Source: Naegleria gruberi (lineage: Eukaryota). From it: DNA of 64,000 nt. Positions 13,514-58,834 of this stretch are shown in pieces. The stretch lies in the NCBI GenBank assembly GCA_000004985.1, contig GG738858.1; one strand, 5' to 3'. The position numbers were made by a program, and so were the translations under genes. How positions within the stretch are numbered: the first letter of the stretch is position 1; each line of letters opens with the position of its first letter. The notes beneath the pieces are model-generated. The model did no database searches. It worked only from the letters and a program-made list of their open reading frames with translations, and was not told the DNA's origin.

Positions 13514-13546
<33 letters not shown>

Positions 13547-17346: not shown

Positions 17347-18265
17347 TTACTTCTTCTTCTTCTTCTTTGCAGCAAGAGCAGCAGCAGCACCACTAACACC
17401 ACTTCCACTTCCAACACCACGTACTTGTTCAGGAGTTAATAAGGTTTTTTGTCCCTTTTTGTGAAGAACTGATTTTTGAGCTTCAACATCTGATGAACCT
17501 TGATGTCCAAATCCCATCAAATTACCTGAATGTTTCTTCTTTGTTTCCCATCTTGATTTAAATGTTTCACTTTGTTCATTTAACATACTATGAATTGGAA
17601 GTTTGTTTCTTCTCTTCTTTCTTTGTTTCTTCTTTTCTTCTCTATTCAATGCATCAGCTTGTCTATTACCACCACCCATTGTTGTTGATGATGATGTCTT
17701 GTTAGATGATGATGATGAATTAATAGATTGAATATCAATTTTACTAATAGAAAGTGTAGAAGTATTAGAAGAAGAAGTAATATTAGATGAAGAAGTAATA
17801 TTTGAAATAATTGATGAAGTCTTTTCAATTTCATCAATATTCTTCTTAATGGATGTAGAAGATGTGAAGATTGTAAATCTTTACAATATTTCTCAGCAGA
17901 ATCAATATCATAAAAAGACATGGCTTCAATTAAACCAGCAGTGTGAAGTGAAACATTTTTAGAATCTAATTTAATTAACATTTCAAAAGTAGATGCAGCT
18001 TGTTCATATTTTTTAAATTGTAATTGTAATTTAGCTAATTCATTTGCCATTTCAATTAAATCTTCCTTTTTAGATGAAGATGATAATTTTTTAATGACTT
18101 GTTGTAACATTTCCAATGCAGAATTCATATCATCAATTTTCATATAAAGTGCAATAATTAAACTTTGAATTGATTTTTCATTAATTAATTTAGATTCTTT
18201 TAATAATTCAATACATTCTTTATATTTACCTTGTTGTAAATATAATTGTACAAGTACTAATTCTA

Positions 18266-18296
<31 letters not shown>

Positions 18297-19878: not shown

Positions 19879-20521
19879 TGAATTTTTTTTTAATTTTAGA
19901 ATTATTTTAAAGCCTTGAAATTCTCACTGTGTCTTCTTCATGCTGATGACATCATCACACAACAAGCCTTTTTATTCTTATTCTTTTCTTGAGAATAAAA
20001 TTTAGGAAGAAGAATTAAAAAGGCTTGTTGATACTACAAGACTAATGTATCACATAATGCTCTTTGTATCATAATAATAATAAATCCAACATTGATCGAT
20101 CAATGAAAATTTAGTCTTCATCAATATTGTTTTCACCAGGTTGAAAAGTAAAATTCCTTCCAATTCAAAGATAAGTGATGGAAACTTTCCTTCACGAATA
20201 ATAACAAACTAACAATTAGCCTCTTCAACTTACCATTAGACCAATAACAATAATATGAAGAATGAACAACACAATGAATACAAACGCTCCCAATCTTTCA
20301 TCAATCAAATGTCATCTACACAAAAAAAATATTTCATCTCCTCCAACGTTAGTTTGTGTGCTGCTGTGAGGTTTTCAAAAGGCTTTTAAAAAACAAACAA
20401 CAACAACATTTACTCAATAGTAGTAAAAAACCATCAATAATAATAGTAATAATATTATATAACATAATATATTTACACACACACATAAATATAATTGTAA
20501 ACAACAATATAGTAGAAAAAC

Positions 20522-21481
20522 ATGACTGACGACGATTCACAAGAAGAAGGAAATTACGATCAAATTAAATGTGTTGTTGTAGGTGATGGTGCTGTTGGTA
20601 AAACATGTAGGTTTTAAAATTCCCGCGCTTTTAATCATCTTTTTAAACTTTGTAAAATAATAATAATAATAATTACTGATAGGTTTATTATTATCATATA
20701 GTAATAATGAATTTCCAGATGGTATGTATTTCTATTTAATTAAGTATCATTGAATGTGATAATGATGATGATAATGATGATTATTGTTATTGTTATTAAT
20801 TAATTAATTTAGAATATATTCCAACTATTTGTGACAATTATAGTAGTAATGTTGAATATAAAGGACATACTGTATCATTGGCACTGTGGGATACAGCTGG
20901 ACAAGAAGGTATTTATTTTACAATAATTGTAATCTCTTTAACATCATTATTTTAACATGTATTAATTCATAATAATATTCATGATAACAAAATAACATAA
21001 CAAAATAATATAACATAACAACATAATAGAATATGATCAATTACGTCCATTATCATATCCAGATACAAATGTATTTTTGGTTTGTTTTTCAGTTGTCAAT
21101 CCATCATCATTAGAAAATGTTAAAAGTAAATGGGTACCTGAATTGAAACAATCATGTCCAGATACACCCATTGTTCTAGTTGGATCTAAAATTGATTTAA
21201 GAAATGATCCAGAACAAAAAAGGAAACTCCAACAAAAAGCTTCACAACCTCTAACTGAAAAAGAAGGAGAACAAATGAAAGTAGAAATTGGTGCTAATTT
21301 CTATAGAGAATGTTCAGCAAAGACAATGGAAGGACTTGCAGATGTATTCGAATGTGTCATTGAGGCACATTATCAACATTTATTATCAAAGAAGGATACT
21401 GAAAGTTCAAATAATCAAAATTCTAAATCTGGTAAAAAAGGTGGAAAAGATAAGAAAAAGAAAGATTGTTTAATCATGTAA
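20522..21481 (+). CDS. Rac/Rho-family small GTPase with CaaX box. Four exons: 20522-20606, 20683-20721, 20813-20908, 21030-21481.
   Basis: Spliced product '[114 protein letters not shown]...LVGSKIDLR...CLIM*'. Introns carry GT..AG with gtaggt/gtatgt/gtattt donors. The P-loop, switch II DTAGQE and the C-terminal polybasic run plus CLIM all point to Rac/Rho. Confidence 0.85.
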
Positions 21482-21654
21482 TATTTAATACATTTTAATA
21501 TATTTTAATATTTAAAATAATTGTTTTTTTTAGTGTTTTTAAAAATCATTGTTGTAATCCATGATGAATTAATATGAGTGAAACTTTGCCAAGTCAATGT
21601 TGATGAGTCATAAAATGTTTCATGTGAAAGCAAACTTTCAAAAAGAGAAGGAAA

Positions 21655-21670
21655 GGGGATCCTCTAGAGT
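21655..21670. other. Cloning-vector polylinker remnant (pUC-type MCS: SmaI half-site, BamHI, XbaI) directly abutting an assembly gap.
   Basis: 'GGGGATCCTCTAGAGT' matches pUC18/19 '...CCCGGGGATCCTCTAGAGTCGAC...' and begins exactly at the SmaI blunt half-site, the classic shotgun-insert junction. Confidence 0.65.
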
Positions 21671-22048
21671 NNNNNNNNNNNNNNNNNNNNNNNNNNNNNN
21701 NNNNNNNNNNNNNNNNNNNNNNNNNNNNNNNNNNNNNNNNNNNNNNNNNNNNNNNNNNNNNNNNNNNNNNNNNNNNNNNNNNNNNNNNNNNNNNNNNNNN
21801 NNNNNNNNNNNNNNNNNNNNNNNNNNNNNNNNNNNNNNNNNNNNNNNNNNNNNNNNNNNNNNNNNNNNNNNNNNNNNNNNNNNNNNNNNNNNNNNNNNNN
21901 NNNNNNNNNNNNNNNNNNNNNNNNNNNNNNNNNNNNNNNNNNNNNNNNNNNNNNNNNNNNNNNNNNNNNNNNNNNNNNNNNNNNNNNNNNNNNNNNNNNN
22001 NNNNNNNNNNNNNNNNNNNNNNNNNNNNNNNNNNNNNNNNNNNNNNNN

Positions 22049-24127
22049 TCTTTTATGATTTGATTTAAAATTTAAATTTAAAGAAAATAAATCTTCACTT
22101 TTTAAAATTTTAGAATTTCCATTTTTAATTAAAATATTTTTCATTGTTAAAGGTAAAATTAAATTTTTTAATTCATTTAAATTTAAATTTAAATTTTCTA
22201 AAATTTCAAAACATTTAATTTCCAAATTAGTATTAAATAATAATAAAATTAAACATTGATATTCATTTACATGTAAATCATATTCACTTCCAAATCTGGC
22301 AATTAATTGACATGTACCAAGTGAATGTATCCATTTTAATATTCTATTTTGAGTAATTGAATTATAAAAATTTAAAAATAAATTTAAACAATTATTAAAT
22401 TCATTTGGTAATTTTAATTTTAAATTTAATTGAATATAAATGGAAGGCCAAATTCCATTTGTTAAAATTTGTGGATTAAATTCTATTTTATTATTATCAT
22501 TAGTTATATTATTATTTCCATTTATATTATTAATTAAATAATTTTTAAATTTAAATTTTAATTCATTTGAATTATTTAAATCTTTAATCATTCCTTCTAA
22601 TTTAAAAGTAAATGAATTTCCCATTTTTAATTTTAATTTATAAATTAATTGTTTTTCCAATTCAATTTCTTGATTTTTAATTAATTTTTTACATAAAAAT
22701 CTTTTAAAAAATTCTAAAAATAAATCTTTATCATTTAAATAGGAAAATAATAATAAAATATTTTCAATATTTAAATTAAATTCAAAATATTTAACTAGAA
22801 TTTCAGGAAAATCTAAATTTTCATTTACTAAATTTGTAAATGACTGAAATAAAAATTGTTGAAAATAAAAATTATCTTTAAATTCAAATTTAATTAAATT
22901 ACTAAATTTAGTATTTAATTTTAATAAATTTGTAATATATTCATTTGAATCATTTTTAATTAATTCTTTTCCTTCTTTAATTATTACTTGTTTCATTGAA
23001 TTTGCTAATTTTGGTAATTCATTTACAATTTCAAATAATTTAAATAAGATTTTTAATTCTTTAATATTAAAATTATTAAATATTTCAATTGATTCTAATA
23101 ATAAAATTTCTAAATTATTTAAAATTAATTCTTGATTTAAATTTTTAAATAATTTTTTAATGGTTGAATTTGGAAAGAAAAAGGAATTTTTATCTTCAAA
23201 AATTAAAATATTTTCAATTTCTTTAAATAAATAATTATTTTCTAATTTCCATTTTTGATTTAATTGTTTAAAATATAAATTTGATAAATTTAAAAATTCA
23301 TTTTCAAAATCCAAGTAAATTGAATTTTCCTTATATAGATTTAATTCATTTGATAATTCAATTAAATATAAAATTCCATTTTTTAATAAATTTTCATTAA
23401 TAATTTCAAAATTTCTTTTTTTTTCATATTTTTCCAAAATTAATTTAGAAAAATTATTTTTAATTTCCAAATAAATAATTTTAAAATAATTTTCAATTGC
23501 AATTTGTTTTAAATTTGATTTTTGAAATTGTTCTATAAAAGATCTTTCAATGTAATTAAATAATTTTGTAAAATATTTAATAATAATTAAATAATCTTTC
23601 CATTTTTGTATACATTGATTTAAAAATAAATCTCCATTTAAATTTTTTAATTGATTTAAATTATTATTTAAAAATTTTATAATAATTTTTTCATATTTAA
23701 TATAAATTAATTCTTTTGAAATTTCTAAATTTAAACATAAATTATAAATGGATGAATAAATAATTAAATAGTCTTGACTTGATGAATTTAAATTTTCTAA
23801 AAATTGTAAAATTCCTTTTTTAATTATTTTCCATTGTTTTTTAAATAATTCATATTCATCATTGTTATTATTATCACTACTAGATGAATTATTTGAAATA
23901 CTATTGAAAAGTTTAATTTTCTTTTCTTGATGAATAAATTCATTACTTGTTGATTCAAAAGTTGATGATTGTAATAAATTAGAGTTGACTTGATGATGAT
24001 CGGAATGTGATGGTGATGATAAGGAACATGATGACAATGTATTATTGATAGTATCCTCATCATCATCTAAACAAGAAGATAATTGACAAGATTTTCGTTT
24101 TTTAGGAACATTTCTTCTGAAATTCAT
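22049..24127 (-). CDS. Cullin-family protein. The N-terminal and central part is present; the C-terminal winged-helix/neddylation end is lost in gap 21671-22048.
   Basis: ATG at 24125-24127. Cullin-repeat signature at the N-terminus ('WKIIKKGILQFLENLNSS...YLIIYSSIYNLCLN'). Cullin-homology region '...NYLINNINGN...LNLFLNFYNSITQNRILKWIHSLGTCQLIARFGSEYDLHVNEYQCLILLLFN...'. The ORF track's terminal '...TLEDPLSFSF' is vector-derived. Confidence 0.75.
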
Positions 24128-24220
24128 TTTTTATGTATTGGAAATTATTTACAATTCATCTCTTTCAATGACATTTAAATATCACCAAATGATGATGATG
24201 ATGATAAACAAGGATGAGAT

Positions 24221-42200: not shown

Positions 42201-44732
42201 ACAAGAGATTTGTCTTTGAATCAAATTGAAACTACAGCAACAACACTCAATTCTGCTGCTGACCAAGATACTAAATCCCTAAGAGAAAAACTTTCAGAAA
42301 TTCTTATAGCCAAACTTAATGGTCAATCTTCTTCGACAAGTCAAGCTATTTTGAGTATTTCTCAAAAACCTTCAGATATCACTGCTAAAACTTCTCAACT
42401 CCTTGTTTCTGGTGTTACAACTTTGGGAGGTAATCTCAGATCAATTTATGCAGCAGGTGGTGAAGCAGATAAAATAGCTAGTGCCTTGACTGGTTCATTG
42501 TCAAACATTGTTGACAACAAGAATATTACTACAAATGAAACCAATAAGGATATTACCAATTCTTTGGCTTCTATCTCAAGAGAACTTGCCAAGATTTTAC
42601 TTCCATCCCAAACCTTGTCAATCAGCTCTAATAATTTCAATATCCTTGTTTTTGGATCTTCCTCTACAAAATCCAGTAATTATACTATTGAAGGATCATC
42701 AATTGGTACTCCTGACAACTTTGATGAATATCTTTCTGGTGCCACTTCATCACTTAACTCTGCCTCTAAGGCCTATGGTGTTGAACTTGTCTACTACAAA
42801 TCTTCATTGTTTGAATCAGTTGGAAAAGCCTCTAACAGTACAAGATCTAGTAATATTTTATCATTTGTTGTTAGTGCCTCCACATCATTTGGTAGTGAAA
42901 GTAGATCGACAGTTTCTATCAAGGGATTGACGAAACCTTTGGTGTTTACATTTACTGTAGCTAATGGTTCTACAAATGGATTCGAATGTAAATTTATTGA
43001 CGAAATTAATAATTATTGGAGTACAGATGGTTGTTCCTCTTTGATCCTCAATGACAACACTGTACAATGTTCATGCAATCACGCAACTAAATTCTCTACA
43101 TTCAGATTATTTACTCAAGTTGTATCCCAAGAAGAATATCTTGGAAGTACTGGTATTAGAATTGTCAATGTTATTTTTGGTGCTATTTATTTCTGTCTAG
43201 CTGCTTTGGTGTTCATTGCTTTGATTATTCTCAGAAACATCAATCCTGTAAGATCAAGATACATTGGTCCTTACATTGGTTTGATTGCAATTATGGTTGA
43301 CTCATTGATCATTTCATTCATCCAAAATATTGTAGTTTTATCTTTGGATAAGGGTATATCCAATTCAACTGCCGATATTGCCAATATTAGAAGAATCAGC
43401 GACGGTTTTAACTATTTCAATGTAATCCTTGTCATTCCTCTTTACTTGACCGCTTTCTTCACTTTCTTGGTCCAAATTGTTAGATACTTTATCAAGAGAC
43501 ACATGTATGAATTCATGTCAAATAAGGTTCTTTTCAATGCTCAAATTTATAGAGCTATTACTTCCAAGATTGCCTTTTGGGTTACCTTGCTTTCTTCTTT
43601 GGCAATAATTATGGCTTATTACACCATTTGGGTTGGTTTGGGAGGAGGAAATGTTTTCGTTGTTAGTACAAACACTGCTCAACAAGATAAGGAAAGAATG
43701 ACATTTACATATATTACTTCCCTTTCCTACTTTGGTCTTGCATGGATAATTGCTATCTGTATGGTTGTTATTGCAGCTTGGGATCTTTTCTACATGAATC
43801 GCCATTTATTCACTTCATGTTGTTATTCTCAAGAAGATTTGTTGAAGAAATCCTCTAGCAATCTTAATCAAACTAGAAATAGAGTTGAAAAACTTCTCAA
43901 TATGTTATCTAGAACAAAGAAACAAAAAGTTCAACTTGGAAAGTCTGCATGGTTGACTGTCCCTCAAGTTTACTACTTTACCGATGACAATTTATATTTC
44001 AGATTGGAAATTCACGTCTTTATTACAGCCTTTGTTTTCCTCACCATCAACTATCTTGCTGGTATTGCTGATATTTCAGTAATTTCAGTTGGATTAACCA
44101 ATGCTGGATCCCGTTTGGCTCCTCAAATTGTTTCCCTAATTGCTGGTATTCTCTACACATTCTGTTTGATTGCTGCTTTTGGTGGTGTGATTGTTGTCTC
44201 TTACCTTACTGAAAGACGTAGAAAGCAGTACCATAAGGATGTAGCTCCTCAATCAAAGATGGATGAAGATGAATTGAACATTGTATTGAGTGATAGATTT
44301 GGTAAACCATTGTTTGTTGAATTCTGTCAAAAAGAATTCTCACTTGAAGTAAGTTTTGGAAATTTTAATTTTATTAACACATTTAAATAGAATGTTTATT
44401 TCTATGATGCAATTACTGATTTCCTTAGAAGTGCTGATTCTAAATCAGATGCAGATGTTAAGAATTCCATTTCTGACATGTTTGAAAAGTATATCAAGAC
44501 TGGTTCTGAATATGAAGTCAACTTGCCTAGCGCCTCAAAGAAGGCCTTTATCACAACACACGAGTGTTCACAACCATCCTCCAAGATGGTTAAGGATATG
44601 TTGGACAATGTAATGATTTCAGTCATGTACAATTTGAAGGATACTTACAGTAGATTCTCAATGACTGAAGAATACAAGCTCTACCAACAAAGTAGAGACA
44701 ACATCAGTATGTTGGAAAACAACTTCTTGTAA
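39204..44732 (+). CDS. Large receptor with RCC1-like repeats, EGF-like Cys modules, an S/T-rich stalk, GAIN/GPS, 7TM and a C-terminal RGS domain. Two exons: 39204-44348 and 44391-44732.
   Basis: RCC1-type repeats: 'VYGDQTNNNLGRE', 'VWGNNTNGQLGNS', 'GIGSNEKGQLGRS'. EGF-like: 'CAGYAPSDSAVCGGNGICADTDYCICSSGFIGQFC', 'CSNRGSCIGVDNCQCASPFTGNQC'. GPS motif 'CKFIDEINNYWSTDGCSSLILNDNTVQCSCNHATKFS'. Seven hydrophobic helices span 43140-44230. The RGS domain is split by a 42-nt intron (gtaagt...aaatag): '...PLFVEFCQKEFSLE|NVYFYDAITDFLRSADS...EYEVNLPSASKKAFITT...YSRFSMTEEYKLY'. Confidence 0.75.
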
Positions 44733-44914
44733 ACAAGCAATTAAGAGTTAATAAATCTAAATTTCATTCAATAAATGTTAAGCAATGAAATTGTGACTAA
44801 CAATCTAACACACTCGAAATTTGGCGCCTAAATTTTCCGTTTTTTAAATTTGAAAACAAAACGTTAACATAAGTTTCCCGCCAATCATCTTTAAACAAAA
44901 CAACAATCAAAAAA

Positions 44915-47047
44915 ATGTCCACACTCACGCCAAACAACTACTTGAAGCGTAAGCGAAGTGATGAAAACTCACCAACGGACCAAGAGAATGTAAATCCTAA
45001 CAAGAAGACTAGTAAAATCCCAGTACTAAAACACTCTAATAGCTCCTCCTCTCTCAACTCATCAACACTTTCCACCAACAAAACCACACCAGTTAAACCA
45101 ACCTTACCAACAAGAACCAATTCAATCCGAGCAAATGCCACTTCTAAGATTAATATGCCAAAGCCTACATCTACACCTTCCACTAGAGTCTCACACTATC
45201 AAAAAACTACACCAAATAGTACAAATCCAAATGCCAGACAATTCGGTTCTGTCTCTGGTAGAATGCTTGCTCCAGGAAGAACAACCCAACAACAACAGCA
45301 GCAACAACAACAACTTCAACAACAATCGAAGGTTGAACTTGAACAAACCAAGTCTCAACTTTCACTTGTTTCCGAAGAAAATAACCACCTCAAGACTAAA
45401 ATCGATGAACAAACCAATCAACTCAAAGATTTGGGTCAGTTAGAAGAAAGAACAAAGTTCCTCTCCACTCAAGCAAACAAATTCCAAGAAGAAAACTTCC
45501 AATTGAAGTCTACAGTCACATCCCAAGAAATTGAAATTAGTGCCATGAAAGGTGTTCAAGAAAGATTACAATCTGATAATATTGATTTGAGAGTTAAAGT
45601 CAGCTCTTTGGAAAAGGAAGTCTCAATGGAAAAGAAGCAAGCAGAAATGGACAAGGCCACCATTAAAATTCAATACGAAAGTGAGCTTAGAATTCAAAAA
45701 GAAACATTCGAACAGCAAATTACTGAAATTACTGAAATTAAGGATAAAGAGCTTTCTCTCACTAAAGACAGACTCACTAGGGAAATTACCAAGTACAAAA
45801 CTGATTTGGAAAAGACTCAATTTGACTTGAGCTTATCAGTTGAAGATGCCAACTCCAAAGCAGAAAAGATTAGATCTCTTGAAGAAATTATCAGACAACA
45901 AGCAGAAGATATCAAATCTCTTGAGAGTAAGAGACATAAGGATGAAAATGAAAGAAGAAGATTACACAATCTCATTCAAGAACTTAAAGGTAATATCAGA
46001 GTTTATTGTAGAGTCAAGCCTGCCCAAAACTTGAAATGTATAGATTATCCAGAAAATGATGTTGATGAAAGATCCATCAGTGTTCAAGAGGAATCCAGAA
46101 CATCTGCAACTGGTGCTTCAGTTGATGGCAAGAAGGCCTTTTTCGAATTTGACAAGGTATTCAAACCAAACTCAAAGCAAAGTGAAATTTTCCACGAAAT
46201 TTCTCAACTTGTACAAAGTGCACTTGATGGTTTCAAGGTTTGTATCTTTGCCTATGGTCAAACTGGTTCTGGTAAGACTTTTACTATGGAAGGTCCACCA
46301 AGAGATGTAATCTCAAAGCTTGATATTGAATCACAAAAAGAAGTTGTTGGTATGATTCCAAGAAGTGTTGACCAAATCTTTGAATCAGCTGAAAGACTCA
46401 AAGAAAGAGGATGGACTTTCTCAATCGTTGCTAGCTTTGTAGAAATTTACAATGAAACTATTAGAGATTTGTTAGACTCCACAACTAAGGACAATGTAAA
46501 ACATGAAATTAAGCATACTAAAGATGGCTCTACATCAGTAACTGGTATCAAATACGTCAACGTTTCTGGTCCACAACACGTTCAAGATTTGTTAAAGATT
46601 GCTTCCAAGAATAGAGCTGTTGCAGCAACTCAATCAAACGATAGATCTAGTAGATCACATTCTGTCTTTACTTTGCAAATTACAGGAAGAAATGATATCA
46701 CTGATCAAACAACTCAAGGAGCATTGAATTTAGTCGATTTGGCAGGTAGTGAAAGAATTGGTACCAGTCAACCAGCTAACGGTGAAAGAGTTAAAGAAAC
46801 CCAAAACATTAATCTCAGTTTGACATGCTTGAGTAATGTTGTAAATGCTCTTTTGAATAAGTCATCACATGTTCCATACAGAGACTCTAAATTGACCTAC
46901 CTCCTTCAAAATTGTTTAGGCAAAGATGCCAAGACTTTGATGTTTGTTAATATTGACCCAGATAATGTAAATGAATCTCTTCAATCACTTCGTTTTGCTG
47001 CTAAGGTAAATTCATGTGAAGTTAATGCCTCAAGAAAGGTAAAGTAG
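44915..47047 (+). CDS. Kinesin-14 (C-terminal motor, minus-end-directed type). 710 aa.
   Basis: N-terminal Ser/Thr/Gln-rich tail, then coiled coil. Neck 'KGNIRVYCRVKP'. P-loop 'GQTGSGKTFTM'. Switch I 'SSRSHSVF'. Switch II 'DLAGSE'. The motor sits at the C-terminus. Confidence 0.88.
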   Translation: MSTLTPNNYLKRKRSDENSPTDQENVNPNKKTSKIPVLKHSNSSSSLNSSTLSTNKTTPVKPTLPTRTNSIRANATSKINMPKPTSTPSTRVSHYQKTTPNSTNPNARQFGSVSGRMLAPGRTTQQQQQQQQQLQQQSKVELEQTKSQLSLVSEENNHLKTKIDEQTNQLKDLGQLEERTKFLSTQANKFQEENFQLKSTVTSQEIEISAMKGVQERLQSDNIDLRVKVSSLEKEVSMEKKQAEMDKATIKIQYESELRIQKETFEQQITEITEIKDKELSLTKDRLTREITKYKTDLEKTQFDLSLSVEDANSKAEKIRSLEEIIRQQAEDIKSLESKRHKDENERRRLHNLIQELKGNIRVYCRVKPAQNLKCIDYPENDVDERSISVQEESRTSATGASVDGKKAFFEFDKVFKPNSKQSEIFHEISQLVQSALDGFKVCIFAYGQTGSGKTFTMEGPPRDVISKLDIESQKEVVGMIPRSVDQIFESAERLKERGWTFSIVASFVEIYNETIRDLLDSTTKDNVKHEIKHTKDGSTSVTGIKYVNVSGPQHVQDLLKIASKNRAVAATQSNDRSSRSHSVFTLQITGRNDITDQTTQGALNLVDLAGSERIGTSQPANGERVKETQNINLSLTCLSNVVNALLNKSSHVPYRDSKLTYLLQNCLGKDAKTLMFVNIDPDNVNESLQSLRFAAKVNSCEVNASRKVK

Positions 47048-47472
47048 AGAGTGGATCCTACTTTATTTATAAAAAATTAATTTATTAACTATTGTTTTTG
47101 GCTAATGAGTAATAACTTGTCCTTGTACACAGATAATATAACTAATGAACCTGTACAATATTAGCCTTCAAATCATCATTACCAAGATAACAAGTTTGTG
47201 TGCATCAATTTGATTGAGTTGCTGCAACAAGTGCACTTGCATAGAAAGTGTGAAACCTTGATGGTACCAATTAAAAATGAGGTTGATGATGGCTGGAAAC
47301 ACTTTAAAAAATACAACAACATCCCTCCCGCGATCACGCCGGTGCAACAAATTCTTCATCATCAATTTCCATCTAGAAAATCTGAGTAAACATTGTATGT
47401 TTAATTGTATAACCTTAGATTTATAATATTAATAATAATTTATTGTATTTTTAAAATTATAGTATATCCATC

Positions 47473-49071
47473 ATGACTGAATTAACACCACAACAAATTA
47501 GTGTCAGCTTTGTTACTCAATATTACTTTATTTTGTCATCAAATACTAAAAACCTTTTCAAATTTTACAAGACCGAATCTGAGATGACTCATGAACACTC
47601 AACTGTTGTTAAGCAATTACCCGGAAATATTAATCCTAATGCAGCAGTTGGAGTTGATAATATTGAAAAGAAGATTTCAACCCTAGGCTATGAAGAATGT
47701 AAAGTCAAATTGACCTATGTTGACTCACAACGCTCATTGAATGGAGCTGTTTTTGTTTTTGTAGAAGGTGTTATGACAAGACAAGTTGACCAAAAGGAAA
47801 TGAATTTCACTCAAACTTTCCTTTTGGCTGAACAAGAAAATGGATACTTTGTTAGAAATGATTATCTTCGTTTCATTCCTGATACATCTAACATTCCAAC
47901 CACTGTTCAAGCTACTCAAAGCAATCCTCCACTTGCTGAATCATCAACCACTGCTTCTGTTTCCAGCACTTCAAGCAGTGAACATCACTCTAAATCACAA
48001 AATGGTCATCAATTATCCTTCTCTCTTAATCCATCCACTGTTAACATTGTTTCCTCTACTACCAACGGTTCTCACTCTCCAAGAAGTGAAGCCAGTTCAA
48101 CTGCTGCTACAGCTGGTGCCAGTTCTGTTTATGGTGGAGCAGAAGAAAATCAATTAGATGATGAAGCTGAGGAAGAAGAAATTACAGTAGTTGAAAAGCC
48201 ACAACAAAATCAACAACCAACTCAAGCTAAATCAACTACTAGTGTACCTGCTGAAAATAAGGAACCACACGGAACAATTTCTTATGCTGCTGCTGCTAGT
48301 GGTAGAGATTATAAGAATGAATCATCTGAACAAACTCAACCAAAACACAAGTCTGGAAAGAAACACAACAAGGAAAATAAGGAACACAAGACTGAACAAC
48401 ACAAGACCGAAAACAAGGAACACAAGACTACCACTGAACAACAACAACACAATAAGGAACACAAAGAACACAAGGAACACAAAGATCACAAAGAACACAA
48501 GGAACATAAGGACCACAAGAATGAACATCATAAGAATGAACACAAGAAACCAGCCACTGCTCCAGTAACTGGTGAACAAAAGCAAGTATCAGCTGAAAAG
48601 AAGGAAAAGACTTTCCGTGGAAAGGATCATCCACTTAATAAGCATGCTATCTATGTTCGTGATCTTCCTGTTGGCACTAAGGATAGTGATTTGAAGGAAG
48701 CTTTTGCAGCTTATGGTAGCATTATTGATATTAACAACAAGTCTGGTAAGGATCAATCATACAATAAGTATGCTTTGATTTTCTTTGAAAAACAACAAAG
48801 TGTTGATGAAGTATTGAAGAATCCAGCTGTCTCAATCAATAATCACCAATGTCCAATCACAAAATACCAAAGAAAGCCAAAACAATACCCAAGAACTCCA
48901 AACCAACCAACATCTACAACCACCACCAGTACACCAACAAAGACTGAGACCACTACTACTCCTGTCACCAATAATACTCAACAACCACGTAATAATAATA
49001 ACAATAATCGTGCTCCAAGACAAAAGTATACTCGTGCCACCAGTAATGAAAGTGAATCAGAAAAGAAGTAA
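47473..49071 (+). CDS. NTF2-like domain plus RRM protein (G3BP-like) with a His/Lys-rich tandem repeat in the linker.
   Basis: NTF2 fold start 'QQISVSFVTQYYFILSSNTKNLFKFY'. RRM 'HAIYVRDLPVGTKDSDLKEAFAAYGSIIDIN...YALIFFEK'. Linker 'HKEHKTEQHKTENKEHKTT...HNKEHKEHKEHKDHKEHKEHKDHKNEHHKNEHKK'. Confidence 0.8.
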   Translation: MTELTPQQISVSFVTQYYFILSSNTKNLFKFYKTESEMTHEHSTVVKQLPGNINPNAAVGVDNIEKKISTLGYEECKVKLTYVDSQRSLNGAVFVFVEGVMTRQVDQKEMNFTQTFLLAEQENGYFVRNDYLRFIPDTSNIPTTVQATQSNPPLAESSTTASVSSTSSSEHHSKSQNGHQLSFSLNPSTVNIVSSTTNGSHSPRSEASSTAATAGASSVYGGAEENQLDDEAEEEEITVVEKPQQNQQPTQAKSTTSVPAENKEPHGTISYAAAASGRDYKNESSEQTQPKHKSGKKHNKENKEHKTEQHKTENKEHKTTTEQQQHNKEHKEHKEHKDHKEHKEHKDHKNEHHKNEHKKPATAPVTGEQKQVSAEKKEKTFRGKDHPLNKHAIYVRDLPVGTKDSDLKEAFAAYGSIIDINNKSGKDQSYNKYALIFFEKQQSVDEVLKNPAVSINNHQCPITKYQRKPKQYPRTPNQPTSTTTTSTPTKTETTTTPVTNNTQQPRNNNNNNRAPRQKYTRATSNESESEKK

Positions 49072-49721
49072 ACCTAAAGACATTAGAAAATGGCTGAAAT
49101 TAAATTGTAAAAACAAATGTAAACAAAATCAAAGAAGAAACAAAATTTTGCAGAATTAGGACTAATTCTTTTCGAAAGTAAATCATTCAATATTAATTTT
49201 CTCTATTTCCTTTGTTCTAAAGCTTTGTTCTAAAAATCGTTCCAAATCATACTGAAATTCACATTTGAACATTTCAAAAATAGAATACCATAATATTGTG
49301 AATATTAAAAGTAAATTACATGTTAGGGATGGGAAAGTCCTATTGTGAATGAGGCATGTAGTGTAATTCTAACACCACGATCAGCTCATTTATCTGAAGT
49401 GTTGGTGGCGTAACTCCATCCATGCCTTTTTACATCTGCAAAACTTTTTCTTTTGGTAAGCAAATGAGTTTGTTTTATTGAGGGCACATGTTTTCAAAAT
49501 TAAGACAAGAAACCAACAATCAACACGAACCAATACAACGACACTGGTGGAAATTCTTGAGAAAAGGTTTTCAGGCATAATTGAGTCAACTACCACAACA
49601 CTGCCTTGGAGTTTGGCTAATTTTAAAAATGCATGGGGCAATCCGGAGTGCCCTGTCTGTAGGGTATTGTCATTGTATTGAATAACTGTGATATCTGAGA
49701 TATTTCCAAATAAAGAAGGTA

Positions 49722-50880
49722 TTAAAAAATATTCGAATATTTTATACAAGCTCCTAAATGTATGAGAGCAAGCTGTAGAATTGATGTAACTGAGTCAGGT
49801 GATATTTGAGTTGTTTCCACCATTTCATTAAAAATTTGAATAGCATCTCTTCCTCTTCCATTTTTACCCAATCCATGAATTAAGGTAGTCCAGAGAGAAA
49901 CATTAATCTTTGATCTACTTTGAGATTTGAGAGTATTAAATGTCAACAGTGCTTTTTCTATTTCTCCAAACTTGGTAAGCATTCTTAATAACACGTTCAT
50001 AGCATTTACATCATTATTCAATTTGTTATTGTTCAAAATATTATCGAACAAGTTCATTCCTATCGCTTTGTCGTTTGATCGTATACATGCAGAAAGAAGT
50101 AAAATATTAATGGATGGATTATCTTTGATTCCAATAATAGTATTCATTAGTATGAATACTTTATCAAAATTGTTTTTCTTCAGAGATGCTTTAATTAGAC
50201 GTCCATAATGACTTACATTTGGGTTAATATTAAACCTATCCTTCATAGAATTAAGCAACTCTTCTGTTGATTTAATATTTCCAGAACTTGCATAGGCATC
50301 CTAAATTTTTAGTATGGTTGCTTCATTAGGGTTTAAAAAGTATGAAATAGCTCAAAAGCTCTGTTTGTCTTATTGTTCTTTACAAAACCTGAAAGCATGT
50401 TATTCCAAGAGACAATATTCTTCTCTTTCATTTCGCAGAAAATAGAATAGGCAATATCTGGTTTTGAGTAATTACAATAAAATGATATTCACTCTCGAAC
50501 ACTTCTGGAAACCCACAAAGTTGTCTCAAAGTAAAATTCCATGTTATTTTTATCTTTCCCTTGTTTTTTTGTTTCCTTATCAATGATATCAAATCTTTAC
50601 AATACTCCAAAGGTTTCATATCATTGCTTTTAGAATTGATAGCTGATATCATTGAAACTACCAAAGAAATAGAAACATCGCCTTTTTGCTTTAGGATTTC
50701 ATACATTTCCAAACATTGTTCCTAATTATACCCTTCGGAAGGTTTGGGATGTTTTTTGAATTGATAAAGTGCTTGATCTAATTTTTTCTCTTCCACCAAT
50801 TTCCTAACTGTTGTGTTGTATAGTGAAGAAATAGATAATGTTGTTAGATTCCGAAAGCTAATCATTTCTTTTATTCAAAA
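49722..50880 (-). pseudogene. Pentatricopeptide-repeat (PPR) gene with multiple in-frame stops and frameshifts. Candidate pseudogene.
   Basis: Clear PPR units: 'NVSLWTTLIHGLGKNGRGRDAIQIFNEMVE', 'EKNIVSWNNMLSGFVKNNKTNRAFELFHTF', 'DAYASSGNIKSTEELLNSM'. Mitochondrial-type N-terminus 'MISFRNLTTLSISSLYNTTVRKL'. Minus-strand frame discontinuities lie at about 50740 ('GYN*EQCLEMYEIL'), about 50430, about 50350 (TAA) and about 50300 ('ILKI*DAYASSG'). Confidence 0.45.
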
Positions 50881-51007
50881 ATAATTTAACCCATGTAAAC
50901 AATTTGAATTCATTATTGGTGGATATTGTTTGAGAAGATTTGAAATCTAGTTCATTATTTGGAGGTAATTTTAAGGATTCAACATTTCCTAGTTTTACAA
51001 TAAAAAG

Positions 51008-51124
51008 ACTACAGCACCACAGGTTCCCAAGTTGTCTCCAACCTCAGTACTGATGTGGCTCGACGATGCTTAACTTCTCAAATCGGACGGGATGAGGTGC
51101 ATTCATCGTGATATGGCCGTAGCC
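51008..51124 (-). rRNA. 5S ribosomal RNA gene (about 117 nt), followed on the minus strand by a T-run (plus 'taaaaa' at 51002-51007) as Pol III terminator.
   Basis: Reverse complement: 'GGCTACGGCCATATCACGATGAATGCACCTCATCCCGTCCGATTTGAGAAGTTAAGCATCGTCGAGCCACATCAGTACTGAGGTTGGAGACAACTTGGGAACCTGTGGTGCTGTAGTC'. This matches universal 5S blocks: ACGGCCATA, CATCCCGTCCGAT, GAAGTTAAGC, AGTACT, GGGAGAC-like, TGGGAA, GTGCTGTAG. The 5'/3' ends are complementary (helix I). Confidence 0.8.
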
Positions 51125-52457
51125 ATTCAATACCTTAATCTGCCTCCTTTCAACAATCTCGGGAAAAGCAAAAGATTAAGTTAAATCCTTCATTCTCAAT
51201 TTTAAATAAACATCAACTCTATAAAAGCATTCAATATTAACTGCCTCGACTCTTTACAATGAATATTCAAACAAACTATCTTCTTTCCATAAAAAAATAA
51301 TAATATCAATTATTATTTCCAAATTCCGTAAAAAGATATGAGTCTAGACTTTTCAGTGCATTTACAATATGTGTGATTGTAAGAGAAACTACCAATTTCG
51401 TACTTCCTAAAGTTAAAATCGTTGTATTACGATATGAATCTAACTGTAAATCAGGCGGCAACAATATTGGCAATATTAAGCAACATACAAAGAATCCAAA
51501 TAAATCGGTTTGAACTCTTGATAAAGTTACGGTATTGAAGAAACACAAAGGTTGTATTTCATTGCAATCAATTTCATTATCCATTAATCATATCAAAGAG
51601 TTCGATATTAAATATTTATCTAAGGAATGGGTAGTGGCTATCAGATACTACATATTTGTATAATTTTTGAATATTCTTTTTGTTAAAGGGTTTTCACGAG
51701 TTGAATCTTTTTAAGACGGTGCAGTCCAGAAGGCAATATTTTGCTACCCACCACTGATAGAGATCTTACACCACTTGCTACCAATTTGGACTTTGATTAC
51801 GGTTTTGGCTAAGATCTCCGCCCGTCATCATGTTGAGAAGACAAAAACAACAAAAAGTGTTGTGTTTTACAACAACTTGAAACCTCCAAAACCAATATTC
51901 ATTCACTGTATTGCTGTTAGTTTAAATAAGATATTCAAAGTATTGGTGTTGAAAGGTTAATCTTCATCCCTACCTATTGAAAACATACATTTCCGCACCA
52001 AGGTATTCCAAACCAAAACCAAGAACCGAGAAAGGTTGTTTGTTTTTGAAATTGTTCCAAGGCTTTTTCCCTGATAAATTCACTTGAACAAGCGTATCAC
52101 AGTACACGCTCCAAACAACAACCAAAAAAATAATACCACCAAAACTCAGACTTTGTAGTAGCAATCAATCGCTGGGCAATATTAGTGTTGTTGGTCATCC
52201 GTTGAGACGAGAGAGGGAAACAGCAGCATCATAATTAATCTCCTTGCTAAAACTTACATAAGATTGACCATAATCTTCATCATCTTTGTATTCTACAAAA
52301 TACACATTTTATCATCATCAAAAACAGTAACTTTTTGATTCTGTTATCATCATTAAATAGACCAATTTCATATTGGATATTATTGTAGAATAGTATTATA
52401 TAGATAATTGTTATTAATCTATCACTTGATCCTAATTTATTTAATTTAAATCTATCA

Positions 52458-54446
52458 ATGATGTATCAGCCAACAAAAAGTAAATACGAAACATTGCACA
52501 ATCATGATGCAGTACAAGGAAACAGCAAACAATCATCAAACTTACTGCCATCACTTCAAAATTGCAATAAGAGCAAACAACCTTGTATTTGCTCAACTAC
52601 AACTTCAACTTCACAAATTCAATCAAATATTTACCTCCAACAACAACCTTCCCGATCTAATGGTTATTTCAGTAATATGGACCATATGATTAATAGTAAT
52701 TCATCCTATCAATTGTACAGACAACATTCCTTCTTAGATTCAGTCCTTACTTCCAACAATAACAATAATGGACTTCTCGAGCATGATAACACATTTCCAG
52801 ATAATTATTCTACCAACATTCCAGGTACTGAACAAATATTAATGATATTAATGTGCAATGGTATGACCCCTGAATTCGATCAATTTAATGGTAAATTCAA
52901 AACTCCAACCTACAAGTACAGTACAAATAGATTAAGAACAGAAAATTTAAACACCAACAGTAGCAATGGTACAACACCATCCTCTTCTTCTTCCACAACA
53001 CCATCCTCTAGTATATCCTCCCCTAATTGTAATGATAATCTTAAATCTCACCTTGAGAGCTCAAATACAATAACAATCATATCCAGAGAAGATATTTGCA
53101 ACGTGAATGCTACTTGTAATTCTCCACAAAGAGAATCAATCTCTAGTAACAATCAACAATATCTTTCAGAATCTTCAAATAAGCTTGATGAAAACTTAAC
53201 CCTTCCTCCTTCTCCATGCGTTTCAGACATTTCCGAATCGGAACAAGTTAAAATTCCAGAAGAAATAATTTTCCAACAAATGACCACCACCACTCCTACG
53301 ACAGACCAAAACCTCATTCCTCACAAGATTGAATCTGTTATCCATGGTTCAACCGAATCATGTCGTATTTCTGATAGTCATGGCGAAACTACCGATGAAT
53401 CCAGTGATGAAGAGGATGCTCCAAAAGCAAAATATCCAAAAAGAGAAGCAAGAGACCAACAAAAAACAATGAAACAAGACCTATCACTTGATTCTGCAGA
53501 ATCATCTGGTTTTGTTGTTAAACCTACCAGGACTTACAGTTTCAGAGATGCCACTATCTATATTCTTTCTCAAATTGGTAAACCAATGACCGCAGTTGAC
53601 ATTACTAAGAACATATTTGATAACAAGATGGTTAAAAGCGCAGGAAAAACTCCTGAAAGAACTGTTGCAGCCATGATTTATCAAGAAATGAAAAAGAAGA
53701 AAAACACCTCTGAGTTTGCTTTATTTGGCTCTGGTCTCTTTGGTTTAAGTGCTTGGAAGAGTGATGACCACACAAGCCAAGATACTGCCAGTGTTTCCAC
53801 TGACGCCTCCTTGTCATCAGTTGACAGAGCTGATAAGAAGAAAAAGGAAAAGAGGAAAAAGAGGAAACTTGCTACTAAACCAGAGAAGGAATCAGAGCTT
53901 TCAGAAGCAGAAAGTGATAATGGGATGTCCGTTTCAAAAAGAAAACCTAGAAAAATGCACAAACACAAACAAGCTTGTTCTTCTTCAAGTGAGGAAACCT
54001 CAATGACAGATTCTGAAGAAACAACAAGTAGTAAGAAGAGAAAACACAATGAATCAGAAGAAACAGCAATTATTATGACAGAGGAAGCTCTTTTCAAAAC
54101 CTACATTTCCAAACTCAAAAAGAAGGATCAAACAGAATCCGATGAAGATGAATGTTTTGTTTGTAAGAATGGTGGTGATTTGATTTGTTGTGATTATAGA
54201 GGATGTAGAAAGGTTTATCATGCTTCATGTGTTGGTCTTAAAGAAGTGCCTCAAGGAGATTGGATTTGTCCTCATCACTATTGTGCAGAATGTAAAAAGA
54301 AATCATTCAGGAGCAAATCTTCTAAGAAGTGTTTCAGTTGTCCATATAGTGTTTGTGGTGAACATGGTTCTCTATTGAAAGATAAGATAGATAACGACAA
54401 GTATGTTTGCACAAAATGTAAACCAATGTGTGAGAACATTAAATAA
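52458..54446 (+). CDS. HARE-HTH plus C-terminal PHD-type zinc-finger chromatin protein. 662 aa.
   Basis: HARE-HTH-like 'YSFRDATIYILSQIGKPMTAVDITKNIFDNKMV...ALFGSGLFGL'. PHD/Cys-rich 'ECFVCKNGGDLICCDYRGCRKVYHASCVGLKEVPQGDWICPHHYCAECKK...CFSCPYSVCGEHG'. Acidic/basic Ser-rich linkers. Confidence 0.7.
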   Translation: MMYQPTKSKYETLHNHDAVQGNSKQSSNLLPSLQNCNKSKQPCICSTTTSTSQIQSNIYLQQQPSRSNGYFSNMDHMINSNSSYQLYRQHSFLDSVLTSNNNNNGLLEHDNTFPDNYSTNIPGTEQILMILMCNGMTPEFDQFNGKFKTPTYKYSTNRLRTENLNTNSSNGTTPSSSSSTTPSSSISSPNCNDNLKSHLESSNTITIISREDICNVNATCNSPQRESISSNNQQYLSESSNKLDENLTLPPSPCVSDISESEQVKIPEEIIFQQMTTTTPTTDQNLIPHKIESVIHGSTESCRISDSHGETTDESSDEEDAPKAKYPKREARDQQKTMKQDLSLDSAESSGFVVKPTRTYSFRDATIYILSQIGKPMTAVDITKNIFDNKMVKSAGKTPERTVAAMIYQEMKKKKNTSEFALFGSGLFGLSAWKSDDHTSQDTASVSTDASLSSVDRADKKKKEKRKKRKLATKPEKESELSEAESDNGMSVSKRKPRKMHKHKQACSSSSEETSMTDSEETTSSKKRKHNESEETAIIMTEEALFKTYISKLKKKDQTESDEDECFVCKNGGDLICCDYRGCRKVYHASCVGLKEVPQGDWICPHHYCAECKKKSFRSKSSKKCFSCPYSVCGEHGSLLKDKIDNDKYVCTKCKPMCENIK

Positions 54447-54709
54447 TTTATTTCACTTTACAATTTCAAATTTGATCTTATTGTTATCTGATTGTTGTTG
54501 GAATATCCCACCAATGGACATTGAGAGTGATAACAAGTCAATCACGACTTTCTCTCAGCGCAAGGAAAGAACAGTACTTATGGTAGGTACCTTCATATTA
54601 CTGTGTGACAAATATCAACATTTACAGAGTTGTTCCAAACTCTTTGGACTAGCATTGCCAAAATCCGACCACCTTTCCAGTTTGACATTTAACAAACACA
54701 AAAAAAATT

Positions 54710-57174
54710 ATGAAGAAACTCTTTTCCCGTACACCTAGCTTTCGTCCAAAATTTTCCAGTAGAATTGATAGCCATGAACAAACTGATGCTCTTGTAGGAG
54801 ATGTTTATCCTGGTCCTCATACAACTAATGGTCAATCATCAATAGTTAATAGTGCACCACTTAGTTCAACTAGTACTAATTCTCTTAACTCCACCACAAT
54901 CAAATATATGTTATTTGGTGGAGAACTTGATGATTCAGATCCAAACAAATTACCACAATTTATTCTTGATACCATTGATTTCCTTCTCAAATATGGTCTA
55001 GAAGTTGAGGGTATCTTTAGAGTTTCAACTCATGAGACTAGAAAAGCCGATTTGATCAACAAGATGAATGATCGATATGCTAAAGAGAAGGATCCACACA
55101 AGAATTGTACATTTACATATAATGGTACAAATAGTGATGAAGTTTATTTTGCCTCTGCTGTTTTAAAACATTACTTTAGAAGTTTACCAACTCCACTCAT
55201 CAAACCACAATTTTATGAAACTTTCATGTTGACAACTAAATGTAGAGATCAGGAAAGAAAAGACATGTTAAAGAATGCTGTCAGATTGTTACCTGTTAAT
55301 TATTTTACTTTATTGAAAAAGATTTCAGACCTTTGTTTTGAAATTTCAAAACACAGCTCATCAAATAAGATGACATGCGAAAATTTATCCGTCTGTTGGA
55401 CTCCTAATTTATTAATGTATGTTATTCATATTATTCATTTATTATTCATTTAGTGATTCAATATGATCTCAATAATTGTAAATGAATTGATCATTCATGG
55501 ATCAATAACTCTCTTCAAATTGTTAAATCAAATAGTAATAATAATATGGATTTTATGGAACAAATGAAGAGAACAGGTGATGCTCAAAATGTAATTGCAG
55601 CTCTTTTCAGAGATTGTAAACAAATCTTTGAAGACGAAGAAGAGGTACCTGTTAGAAATGTAGAAAGAAAACGATCAGCAGCTCAAACTAAGAAATTCTT
55701 TTTGGGACTCACTTCACAAACTTCTCAAGAAGGAATGGCAGTTTACAATGGAGAAAAGAATGAAAATGGAGAGAAACATGGTCGTGGTATTTTAATGTTA
55801 CCAAATGGTTCAGTATTTGAAGGTGAATTTAGAAATAACAGTTATGCAAATGGTAAATTGGTTTATGTTACAGGTGAACAATACGAAGGAAAGTTTATTG
55901 ATGATTTGCCAGATGATGATAATGGTGTTTTCCGTTTTGCAAACATGTCAGTTTACACTGGTCAAGTAAAGAAAGGCCAATTGACTGGAGTTGGTGAATT
56001 GAAATACAAAGATGGTGGTATTTACAAAGGATCATTTGTAAATGGAAAGAGAGAAGGAAAAGGAAGTTTTGAATTTTATGAAGGAAATCAAAAAGTTAGA
56101 CATTACGATGGTGATTGGGAAAATGATTCAATGAGTGGTCAAGGTACCCTAATTAACACAACTATTCAACAAGTTTATACTGGTCAATTTAAGAATAATG
56201 TTTATCACGGACAAGGTGTTTTAATTTCTGGTTTAGAACAAAATAGATGTGAAGGTGAATTTGAGAATGGTGTTGTAAAGAATGGTTCTGGAAGTTTCAC
56301 TTCACTGAATAATGAATTTATTCAATTTGAAGGATCATGGAAGAATTGTCAATTCACAGGTAAAATTAAGATTTTCAATTTCCAAACCAGATCATTAGAA
56401 TTTGAAGGTGATATGATTGACTCTAGAAAGAATGGTTTCGGTAAATTAGTTTATTCAGATGGATCATATTATGAAGGTCAATTTAATAATGATGAAATGA
56501 CTGGTACAGGTTCATTTGTTGATTCTGATAGAGTTTACAATGGTCAATTCGTTAAAAGTTTATTCCATGGTAAAGGAAAGTTAAAGGCAACTTTCAAATC
56601 TAAGGATTATGTTTTTGAAGGAGAATTTAGAGAACACCAACCATATAATGGTGTTGGTTCAGTTGTTGTGAGTAGAAAAACTGGAGATTATTGGGATGGT
56701 GAATTTAAGAATGGAAAGTTTAGTGGAAAGGGTCGTCTCACATTTGAAGATGCTTCTGTTTATGAAGGTAATGTTAAAAATTCACTTTGTGAAGGAAAGG
56801 GTGTTGTCACCTATCCAGATGGATCAATTTATTCTGGATCATTCTCAAATGATGAAAGACATGGTCCTGGAACACTCACTATTAAGGATGGAGATGAGAA
56901 GGATTTCATGATTGTCTCAATTAATCAAGTTTGGGATCATGGTGTTTTAGTTTCACAAGAAGAACCTCAATCACCTGCTACATTGGATGAGAAGGAATCT
57001 CTAATCTTTTCATTCCTTGACTCATTAGAGAAGGAAGAACCTCTGAGATTTGGACCACTTGTTGGTAAAGAACAACGACCTTACATCTCAACTGCCTTAA
57101 CAAAAGCAAAGGAAAATCCAAATACTTCAATCTTGTATGAAATTCTCTATCAACTCTCAAAATGCAGGCGTTAA
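54710..57174 (+). CDS. RhoGAP domain plus MORN-repeat protein. Two exons: 54710-55416 and 55536-57174. Intron 55417-55535 (gtatgtt...aaatag).
   Basis: RhoGAP 'VEGIFRVSTHETRKADLINKMN...VLKHYFRSLPTPLIKPQFYETF...NLSVCWTPNLL'. Across the intron it continues in frame as 'INNNMDFMEQMKRTGDAQNVIAALFRDCKQIF', the expected last helix of the GAP domain. About 15 MORN units follow ('YEGEFRNNSYANGKLVYVTGEQYEGKF...'). Confidence 0.6.
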
Positions 57175-57331
57175 CATGTTGACAATAAAAGTAAAAATCC
57201 AAACATTGTAACAATATTTCTCAATTTCAAATACTTGATGATGATTCAAATTTTCGGAAATGTTCATCCATTGATTCAAATTTTGATTTTTCAAAGTTAA
57301 AAATAAAACCAATCAAATAACAATCAAAAAA

Positions 57332-58834
57332 ATGAATCATCAACATCTCTCAAAATTTGCTCAACCATCATCACTGATGAGAGTGTTCAGTGCTGGTACT
57401 AGAAAATGTAAAGGCTTTTCTCTTGTTCAATCATCTTCTTGGATTAATAATAGGAAATTCCAATCAAATAATATTAGACAATTTTCATCAACAAGTTTGA
57501 ATAGGAATGAAAAACAAGCAAGACAAGATTTGTATTCCTATGAAGTTTATGCTCTTCCGACAGAAAGAGATTATGATAGAATGATTCCGGATAGTGTTGA
57601 AGATAAACAAACTATTGTTGATTTGAATATGGACATTAGAAATGTATTAAATTATGTTCTTTTCTTGGCTTGTGATAAATATTCAGCAGAACGTTTAAAA
57701 GGATATCAAGAACATAAATTTAGTTTTGGAAAGGATAGACTTGTTAGTATTTTACAGTTAGCTCATGATGATTCAACTAGTCATTCAGGAAAAAAGCGAA
57801 GTTTAGAAAGTATTCTGGATAAGTCAACCACTGATTATATTGATATTATTGATGCTGTAAATTCTCACGTTCAATATATTAATAGAGAATTGAACAGACT
57901 TGATTTAAGTATTTCAGAGGAATACTATTCTGGTTCACCAAAAATTTCTGCAGAGGAATCAAATACTTCTCTTGCACAATGTGAAAAGGATATTGAAAAA
58001 TTGAATAGTGTTTTTAATAAGATGTATTCTATGGCTGATGTTGATCCATTGGATGATGATCTCATTGATAATGAAGCATATCACCCAATTGCATTGTATC
58101 TTAAGAATAAGATGAGAATAGTTTCTGTTAAAATGGACTTACAAAAGGACAAAGACAAGTTTAAGGATATTGAATCATTTCTCAAAATGGAACATGACAA
58201 GGATGAAGTTTTGGCTATGTGTAACAAAATTCAAGAAAGAGCTCTCCTCTATATGTCAACTCTACAATTGACAAAAGCCTATTCTGACATTACTCTATGC
58301 ACTCATATTACCAAACTAGTAGTTACAAAAGATGATACCAAGAAAGATATTTTAATTACTAGAGGATTAATTACATTACAATCATTAATTTACATGTACT
58401 CACTCTTGAAGGAATATGTTGTTATCATTAATAGAAAAGTTGATTTTGATTTTACTACAGAAAATCCAAAAGATTTACATCACTTTTTTGTTGAAAATTT
58501 CAAGGTTGTTCAACCAGTTATGTTTGACAATCAAATTGTTGAACTCGATTCTCAACGTTTAGCTTCTCTAGTAGATTTGAAAAATATTTCCCTTAAACTT
58601 GCTGTTTATGCTTCTAATCAACTTGAAATGCTGAAATATGATTTAGATGGTAAGAAGTTTGAATTTTTAGATAAATACCAGAAAGATTTAGACCTCACCA
58701 TGAAAGTTCTCAAATTCCAAGCAATTTATGTAGTCCTTAAAAAAGCTTTATCATTCACTCTTTGGGCAATTGCTTCTATTTGGCTCTTTAGATTTATTTC
58801 ACGAAAGCTTGAAGGAGAACCACTATTCAAATAA
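57332..58834 (+). CDS. Hypothetical protein (500 aa) with a mitochondrial-presequence-like N-terminus and a single C-terminal TM ('FTLWAIASIWLFRFI').
   Basis: Intact ORF from ATG. No recognisable catalytic motif. Confidence 0.5.
   Translation: MNHQHLSKFAQPSSLMRVFSAGTRKCKGFSLVQSSSWINNRKFQSNNIRQFSSTSLNRNEKQARQDLYSYEVYALPTERDYDRMIPDSVEDKQTIVDLNMDIRNVLNYVLFLACDKYSAERLKGYQEHKFSFGKDRLVSILQLAHDDSTSHSGKKRSLESILDKSTTDYIDIIDAVNSHVQYINRELNRLDLSISEEYYSGSPKISAEESNTSLAQCEKDIEKLNSVFNKMYSMADVDPLDDDLIDNEAYHPIALYLKNKMRIVSVKMDLQKDKDKFKDIESFLKMEHDKDEVLAMCNKIQERALLYMSTLQLTKAYSDITLCTHITKLVVTKDDTKKDILITRGLITLQSLIYMYSLLKEYVVIINRKVDFDFTTENPKDLHHFFVENFKVVQPVMFDNQIVELDSQRLASLVDLKNISLKLAVYASNQLEMLKYDLDGKKFEFLDKYQKDLDLTMKVLKFQAIYVVLKKALSFTLWAIASIWLFRFISRKLEGEPLFK

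Follow-up and report, generated by a model that had tools for sequence, protein, structure and literature searches.

A single 5S rRNA gene lies on the minus strand of the 64-kb stretch of Naegleria gruberi DNA analysed here (the window). It occupies a spacer of ~1.6 kb that separates two protein-coding loci of divergent orientation: its 3′ end is followed after ~140 bp by the first ATG of a pentatricopeptide-type (PPR) locus on the same strand, and its 5′ side faces a gene starting at 52458. The features of this region are listed below, with positions relative to the first base of the 5S gene where applicable.

49725–50865, minus strand: decayed DYW-type PPR gene, the downstream neighbour and not part of the 5S unit (PPR Pfam matches; homologue P0138)
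50996–51002, minus strand: TATTGTA, directly after the T-run, common to the window and to the related metagenome locus L006
51002–51006, minus strand: T5 run, read as an RNA polymerase III (Pol III) terminator
51006–51124, minus strand: 5S rRNA gene, 119 nt, full length (RF00001 match, fold, covariation, match to the L006 5S)
51028–51045, minus strand: Box C-like element GAGGTTGGAGACAACTTG, +80..+97
51068–51075, minus strand: Box A-like element AGTTAAGC, +50..+57
51148–51156, minus strand: candidate upstream promoter element TTGTTGAAA, -32..-24 (hint only)
52458–54446, plus strand: gene for a protein with HARE-HTH and PHD-like zinc-finger domains, the divergent upstream neighbour (Pfam HARE-HTH)

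[quoted passage not shown]

When the whole 64-kb window was scanned with cmscan (Rfam 15), positions 51006–51124 of the minus strand matched the 5S_rRNA family (RF00001) with 105.4 bits against a gathering threshold of 38 (E 4.4e-22). The alignment extends over model positions 1–120 of 120, and zero non-canonical pairs were flagged. The minimum free energy fold of the RNA is the canonical 5S three-way junction, in which helix I (9 bp) closes the ends and two arms are formed by helices II–III and IV–V; its energy is -41.5 kcal/mol (z = -2.6 vs shuffles). The canonical structure is also backed by covariation. In an alignment of 13 related full-length 5S sequences, 97.7% of the cells were paired, compared with 33–41% in slid-alignment controls, and compensatory changes were present in 18 of the 39 pairs. 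The interval 51006–51124 is a genuine, structurally intact 5S rRNA gene.

A preliminary description of this DNA had reported a full-length 5S gene on the minus strand with a self-complementary helix I, and had proposed an RF00001 covariance search as its check. The complete model match, the score well above the gathering threshold, and the canonical fold all agree with that report. Its span of 51002–51124 corresponds to the 5S gene together with the T-run, which it had named as a terminator and which is indeed present as five T at 51006–51002 of the sense strand.

On that strand, the gene ends in ...GTAGTCT, followed by TTTTATTG. The gene's last aligned base doubles as the first T of the TTTTT run, and the run is longer than the minimum of four T that serves as the criterion for a Pol III type-1 terminator. 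In 10 of 12 related full-length 5S copies, T3–T4 likewise comes directly after the gene; in the two exceptions, L015 and L012, the T-run lies 8 and 5 nt further downstream, respectively. From established Pol III biology, we infer that the T5 run is a Pol III terminator.

Within the 64-kb window, the gene is solitary, as had been stated in the preliminary description. One 5S was recovered by Rfam at the gathering threshold over the whole window, by nhmmer, and by an E-value scan of 44000–58000; at sub-threshold scores, the Rfam scan of 44000–58000 returned a spurious bacterial sRNA match only. ARAGORN and Rfam detected no tRNA genes in the 64 kb, and Rfam detected no SSU, LSU, or 5.8S rRNA there. 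The location of the gene in a GC-richer tract, which had also been claimed, stands in part: it is true of the gene itself (51% GC) and of 51700–52200 (35–39%) but not of the rest of the spacer, which at 25–31% GC resembles its surroundings. The stretch at 51700–52200, upstream of the HARE-HTH/PHD gene, has no ORF exceeding 64 aa and gave neither a Pfam match nor a credible Rfam match. It may be the 5′ UTR or the promoter of that gene.

Pfam and homologue mapping also confirmed the two flanks as originally described, namely a PPR pseudogene and a PHD-finger gene. PPR repeats were found by Pfam at 49722–50258 and 50333–50431 of the minus strand. The best homologue of the locus, P0138, has the architecture PPR-E-DYW; the DYW type is the architecture of plant-type RNA-editing factors. 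P0138 maps onto 50814–49725 in three reading frames; the junction at 50330 is contiguous, so that an intron could not be accommodated there. Between the first two aligned P0138 blocks, some 138 residues are missing, and no E or DYW part of this protein was aligned at the locus. Additionally, in-frame TAG codons near 50720–50722 and 50309–50311, read by eye, break otherwise good PPR motifs. In a library of 1.84 billion representatives, no protein exceeds 36% identity, and the locus thus does not seem to be covered by any annotated protein. As far as can be judged from its sequence, the label of pseudogene is supported. DYW-type PPR genes are known in N. gruberi, and 49725–50865 would be a pseudogene of that family.

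On the other side of the spacer, the protein encoded at 52458–54446 matches HARE-HTH with 42.6 bits, and its C-terminal PHD-like matches fall just below the curated Pfam cut-offs. Orthologues of this protein are present in N. lovaniensis and N. fowleri.

The host genome and its dispersed 5S family

Over its full length, the kinesin-14 ORF at 44915–47047 shows 100% identity to the NCBI entry for the kinesin-14 of N. gruberi (XP_002679253.1 / EFC46509.1), which sits on a contig of 782,252 bp. The next matches are those of N. fowleri (68%), a Naegleria-like contig from ENA (67%), Willaertia magna (54%), and Acrasis kona (44%). A block consisting of an RCC1-GPS(-RGS) receptor, kinesin-14, and an NTF2-RRM gene is collinear in N. 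gruberi, N. fowleri, and the ENA Naegleria contig. Beyond the NTF2 gene, the gene order of the window is rearranged relative to the other Naegleria loci, and no remnant of the RagA gene was found in the window; in N. fowleri and N. lovaniensis, this gene precedes the orthologue of the HARE-HTH/PHD gene.

Rfam and nhmmer searches of ~84 kb of syntenic or orthologous stretches found no 5S gene. These stretches were the kinesin-side syntenic loci of N. fowleri (L001) and of the Naegleria contig (L016) and the HARE-HTH/PHD orthologue loci of N. fowleri (L017) and N. lovaniensis (L018). The position of the 5S gene appears to be specific to the lineage, which is what one would expect of a family with turnover, the search itself showing just that the position is not conserved. 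In the course of this comparison, we observed a second kinesin-14 (P0004) in N. fowleri, near the HARE-HTH/PHD orthologue, and a 1249-aa gene model in N. lovaniensis in which kinesin domains are joined to NTF2/RRM domains, probably because annotations were merged.

The 5S genes of N. gruberi have been catalogued before. A study of the JGI assembly published in PLoS One in 2012 (PMC3369914) listed 279 putative genes for 5S, described as 'not located with rDNA units'; they measure about 117–120 nt, and an internal control region and T-runs are reported for them. The gene in the window comes from the same genome and corresponds to the catalogued ones in its size, its lack of linkage to rDNA, and its T-run.

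We computed the spacing of these genes from the published Table S1 of PMC3369914. According to this table, the 279 candidates are distributed over 117 scaffolds; 57 of them are alone on their scaffold and 222 have a neighbour on the same one. Among the latter, the nearest-neighbour distance has a minimum of 462 bp, a median of 22.75 kb, and a 90th percentile of 130 kb, and no candidates are closer to each other than 300 bp. While 79 candidates lie at most 10 kb from another, a further 143 have a same-scaffold neighbour but none within 10 kb. Together with the 57 that stand alone, this leaves about 200 of the 279 without another 5S within 10 kb. In the N. gruberi genome, 5S genes typically occur singly among protein-coding genes, and the family as listed in Table S1 is dispersed, with a few loose clusters whose members are 1–5 kb apart. 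The window copy is almost certainly one of the 279 rows of this table, many of those listed for scaffolds 8–15 being compatible with it. As an aside, Table 1 of PMC3369914 scores the 5S genes of N. gruberi as 'tandem: yes', which its own Table S1 does not bear out (none <300 bp).

The circular extrachromosomal rDNA element of Naegleria, 13–15 kb in size, carries single copies of 18S, 5.8S, and 28S only (PMC12482156; PMC5805870), and thus the 5S genes must be chromosomal. Several papers (PMC5805870, PMC10586121, PMC12482156) contain statements that Naegleria rRNA genes are absent from nuclear or chromosomal DNA, or are exclusive to the plasmid, which overlook the chromosomal 5S. The often repeated claim that the nuclear DNA of Naegleria contains no rRNA genes is correct for 18S, 5.8S, and 28S but needs the addition 'except 5S', and the locus in the window is a counter-example.

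We conclude, with a probability of roughly 0.9 for identity and family membership together, that the gene in the window is one member of the dispersed nuclear 5S multigene family of N. gruberi. It is worth stressing that the dispersed arrangement in this species is already known, having been catalogued since 2012 (PMC3369914). As a discovery, the window copy therefore matters little: it is a routine gene that was correctly spotted.

Similar arrangements are known elsewhere. In Neurospora crassa, Schizosaccharomyces pombe, and Acanthamoeba castellanii (PMC1635290), single 5S units are likewise scattered in unrelated unique sequence and transcribed independently by Pol III. These organisms belong to other eukaryotic supergroups, and Naegleria differs additionally in having its large rRNA genes on an extrachromosomal circle. 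In Yarrowia lipolytica (PMC2566860), about 100 5S copies are dispersed outside the rDNA unit, as in Naegleria.

Related 5S genes and candidate promoter elements

A metagenome scan with a 22-mer from loop C/helix III yielded 14 contigs, each of which carries exactly one 5S. The 5S of one of them, L006 (JGI Ga0247722_10036048), is identical to that of the window at 118 of 119 positions. The ORFs next to it have no similarity to those of the window, so L006 is an independent locus, presumably from a close relative within Naegleria. The sole difference within the gene is position 24 in loop B, which is U in the window and A in L006. A is found at this position in 11 of the 12 relatives, and U occurs also in L012, the most distant of them; position 24 is weakly conserved in the Rfam model.

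The VFQM/VFQO contigs (L002, L003, L005, L007–L009, L011, L013, and L014) each contain one 5S that is 75–78% identical to the Naegleria gene, and judging by the near identity of these 5S sequences, the nine contigs apparently come from one eukaryote. The upstream flanks of eight of these copies are unrelated (mean identity 0.30); what the eight share is a weak TAT(A) around -26..-23 and, at -8..-1, a stretch rich in pyrimidines. This shows that N. gruberi is not alone in having dispersed 5S genes with a short upstream box.

For the internal control region, we used the patterns quoted in PMC3369914. The Box A pattern N(G/C)(C/T)(C/T)AANC has a sole match in the gene, AGTTAAGC at +50..+57, and these columns are invariant across all 13 relatives. 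The best match to Box C, for which the consensus is of the vertebrate type, is GAGGTTGGAGACAACTTG at +80..+97, with mismatches at 2 of 18 positions. Both of them are the two sides of one helix pair (columns 85/92), which is U-A in the window and G-C in most relatives. The intermediate-element pattern produced 11 matches and is too degenerate to be informative.

Upstream of the gene the picture is different from the published one. A TATA box has been reported for the 5S genes of N. gruberi (PMC3369914), whereas no canonical TATA box is visible at -25 to -30 of the window copy. Outside the gene, the window and L006 align in two places only, TATTGTA and TTGTTGAAA, the latter in register at -32..-24. 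An in-register run of 9 nt was reached in 104 of 20,000 shuffles in this comparison of two loci, the window and L006. The position of TTGTTGAAA is also where the dispersed 5S genes of the other metagenome organism carry their weak TATA-like box. The shared motif is a suggestive hint of an upstream element, resting on two loci.

Such an element would be of interest in view of the transcription factors involved. No detectable TFIIIA homologue was reported for N. gruberi (PMC3369914), so classical type-1 promoter recognition may not apply as such. For Acanthamoeba, by contrast, regulation by TFIIIA is documented (reference 25 of PMC1635290), and a precedent for TFIIIA-independent 5S expression exists in Yarrowia (PMC2566860). 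In that yeast, 48 of 108 5S copies lie directly 3′ of a tRNA gene, in contrast to the window, which is devoid of tRNA genes. A tRNA-5S dicistron of the Yarrowia type is thus excluded, and the window 5S needs its own promoter.

Taken together, the reported absence of TFIIIA and the motif TTGTTGAAA would point to a non-canonical, upstream-assisted recruitment of Pol III. We put forward tentatively, and with the odds clearly against it, the idea that the 5S genes of Naegleria may rely on an upstream element at -32..-24 that is specific to the lineage, and that Heterolobosea may recruit Pol III in this way. With ~280 dispersed copies and reportedly no TFIIIA, the flanks of the 5S genes could reveal how Pol III finds these genes in a deep-branching eukaryote, and TTGTTGAAA is a weak first pointer in that direction.

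Most probably, Pol III transcribes the window 5S as a stand-alone gene from an internal control region (Box A at +50..+57 and the Box C-like element at +80..+97), a short upstream element might assist, and transcription would stop at the five T after helix I. We infer these promoter and terminator roles, and the transcription of this particular copy, from established Pol III biology. Judging by its sequence, the copy is probably active.

The alternative is that this copy, although structurally intact, is silent or redundant within the family, having arisen by recent duplication and being on its way to becoming a pseudogene. In a family of about 279 copies, individual ones are dispensable, and the decayed PPR gene that adjoins this copy may indicate locally relaxed constraint. 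The presence of U24 in one relative only of the 12 (L012, the most distant) and the missing canonical TATA at -30 would fit the same explanation. Against it, the gene is full length, scores 105 bits, and has no flagged non-canonical pair, and it is one base off an independent copy, that of L006, in a related genome. The T-run and Box A are intact, and the motif at -32..-24 is common to both loci. We consider a silent copy unlikely.

Other explanations of the locus and further features of the window

Two further ideas of the preliminary description, a retroposed or solo copy and a target-site marker for retroelements that seek Pol III genes, found no support. Dispersed Pol III genes do attract retroelements in some compact genomes, an example being TRE5-A of Dictyostelium, which is found at tRNA genes and at the rDNA element (PMC5391098). 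A retroposed 5S would be expected to lie between direct repeats, but there are none bracketing the gene and no target-site duplication around it. Neither does it resemble the head of a 5S-derived SINE: an A-rich tail is lacking, and the T-run comes directly after helix I with no SINE body. The three spacer ORFs of at least 60 aa that were scanned contain no Pfam domain and hence no reverse transcriptase, integrase, or transposase, and there are no tRNA genes in the 64 kb. Moreover, the similarity to L006 continues beyond +1 on the upstream side, as far as -33, and a copy made via RNA would lack such sequence. Any origin or role of this kind is very improbable.

Even less credible is a misassembled fragment of an rDNA unit, which the preliminary description had named as the finding that would speak against its reading. 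Several assembly gaps do exist in the left part of the window, but from 22049 onward the sequence is gap-free and unique, including the 5S region and both flanks. No other rRNA (SSU, LSU, or 5.8S) accompanies the gene in the 64 kb, and the rDNA circles of Naegleria are without 5S.

The premise of the preliminary description that this might be a chromosomal 5S in a dictyostelid, whose 5S normally sits on an extrachromosomal palindrome, can be dismissed, since the AT-rich, intron-poor window with its poly-N and poly-Q proteins is only superficially Dictyostelium-like, while its kinesin-14 is that of the heterolobosean N. gruberi (100% identity) and its closest relatives are all Heterolobosea. 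As the host is Naegleria, the rDNA palindrome of Dictyostelium is not a relevant comparison. Both Dictyostelium discoideum and Naegleria have their large rRNA genes on an extrachromosomal element. In Dictyostelium, however, the 5S is part of the large rDNA repeat, beside the Pol I unit (PMC1635290), whereas the Naegleria circle has no 5S and the 5S genes are chromosomal.

The remaining observations concern the left part of the window, at a distance from the 5S gene. An AT-rich island extends over 6307–24200, with 13–34% GC in 1-kb windows of called bases, mostly <29% (33% at 9–11 kb), as compared with 26–35% at 25–64 kb. Runs of N occupy 1–6306, 7720–7769, 16182–17230, 18905–19430, and 21671–22048. 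The island holds ORFs of eukaryote type. Among them, a cullin ORF at 21638–24127 of the minus strand, which scores 322 bits with Pfam Cullin, overlaps a stretch (22–24 kb) where GC is only 13%, and another, of 486 aa, is rich in poly-N and D/S repeats. In the viral contigs that were scanned, no relatives of the island ORFs were found. The island may be compositional in nature, consist of foreign DNA, or result from a chimeric scaffold. At its left end are two near-identical dual-specificity phosphatase ORFs (6460–7122 and 8139–8792, minus strand); the same AT-rich tandem repeat of 30 nt comes after each of them, and the segments 6354–7122 and 8033–8792 represent a tandem duplication of about 1.7 kb that adjoins the 6.3-kb gap.
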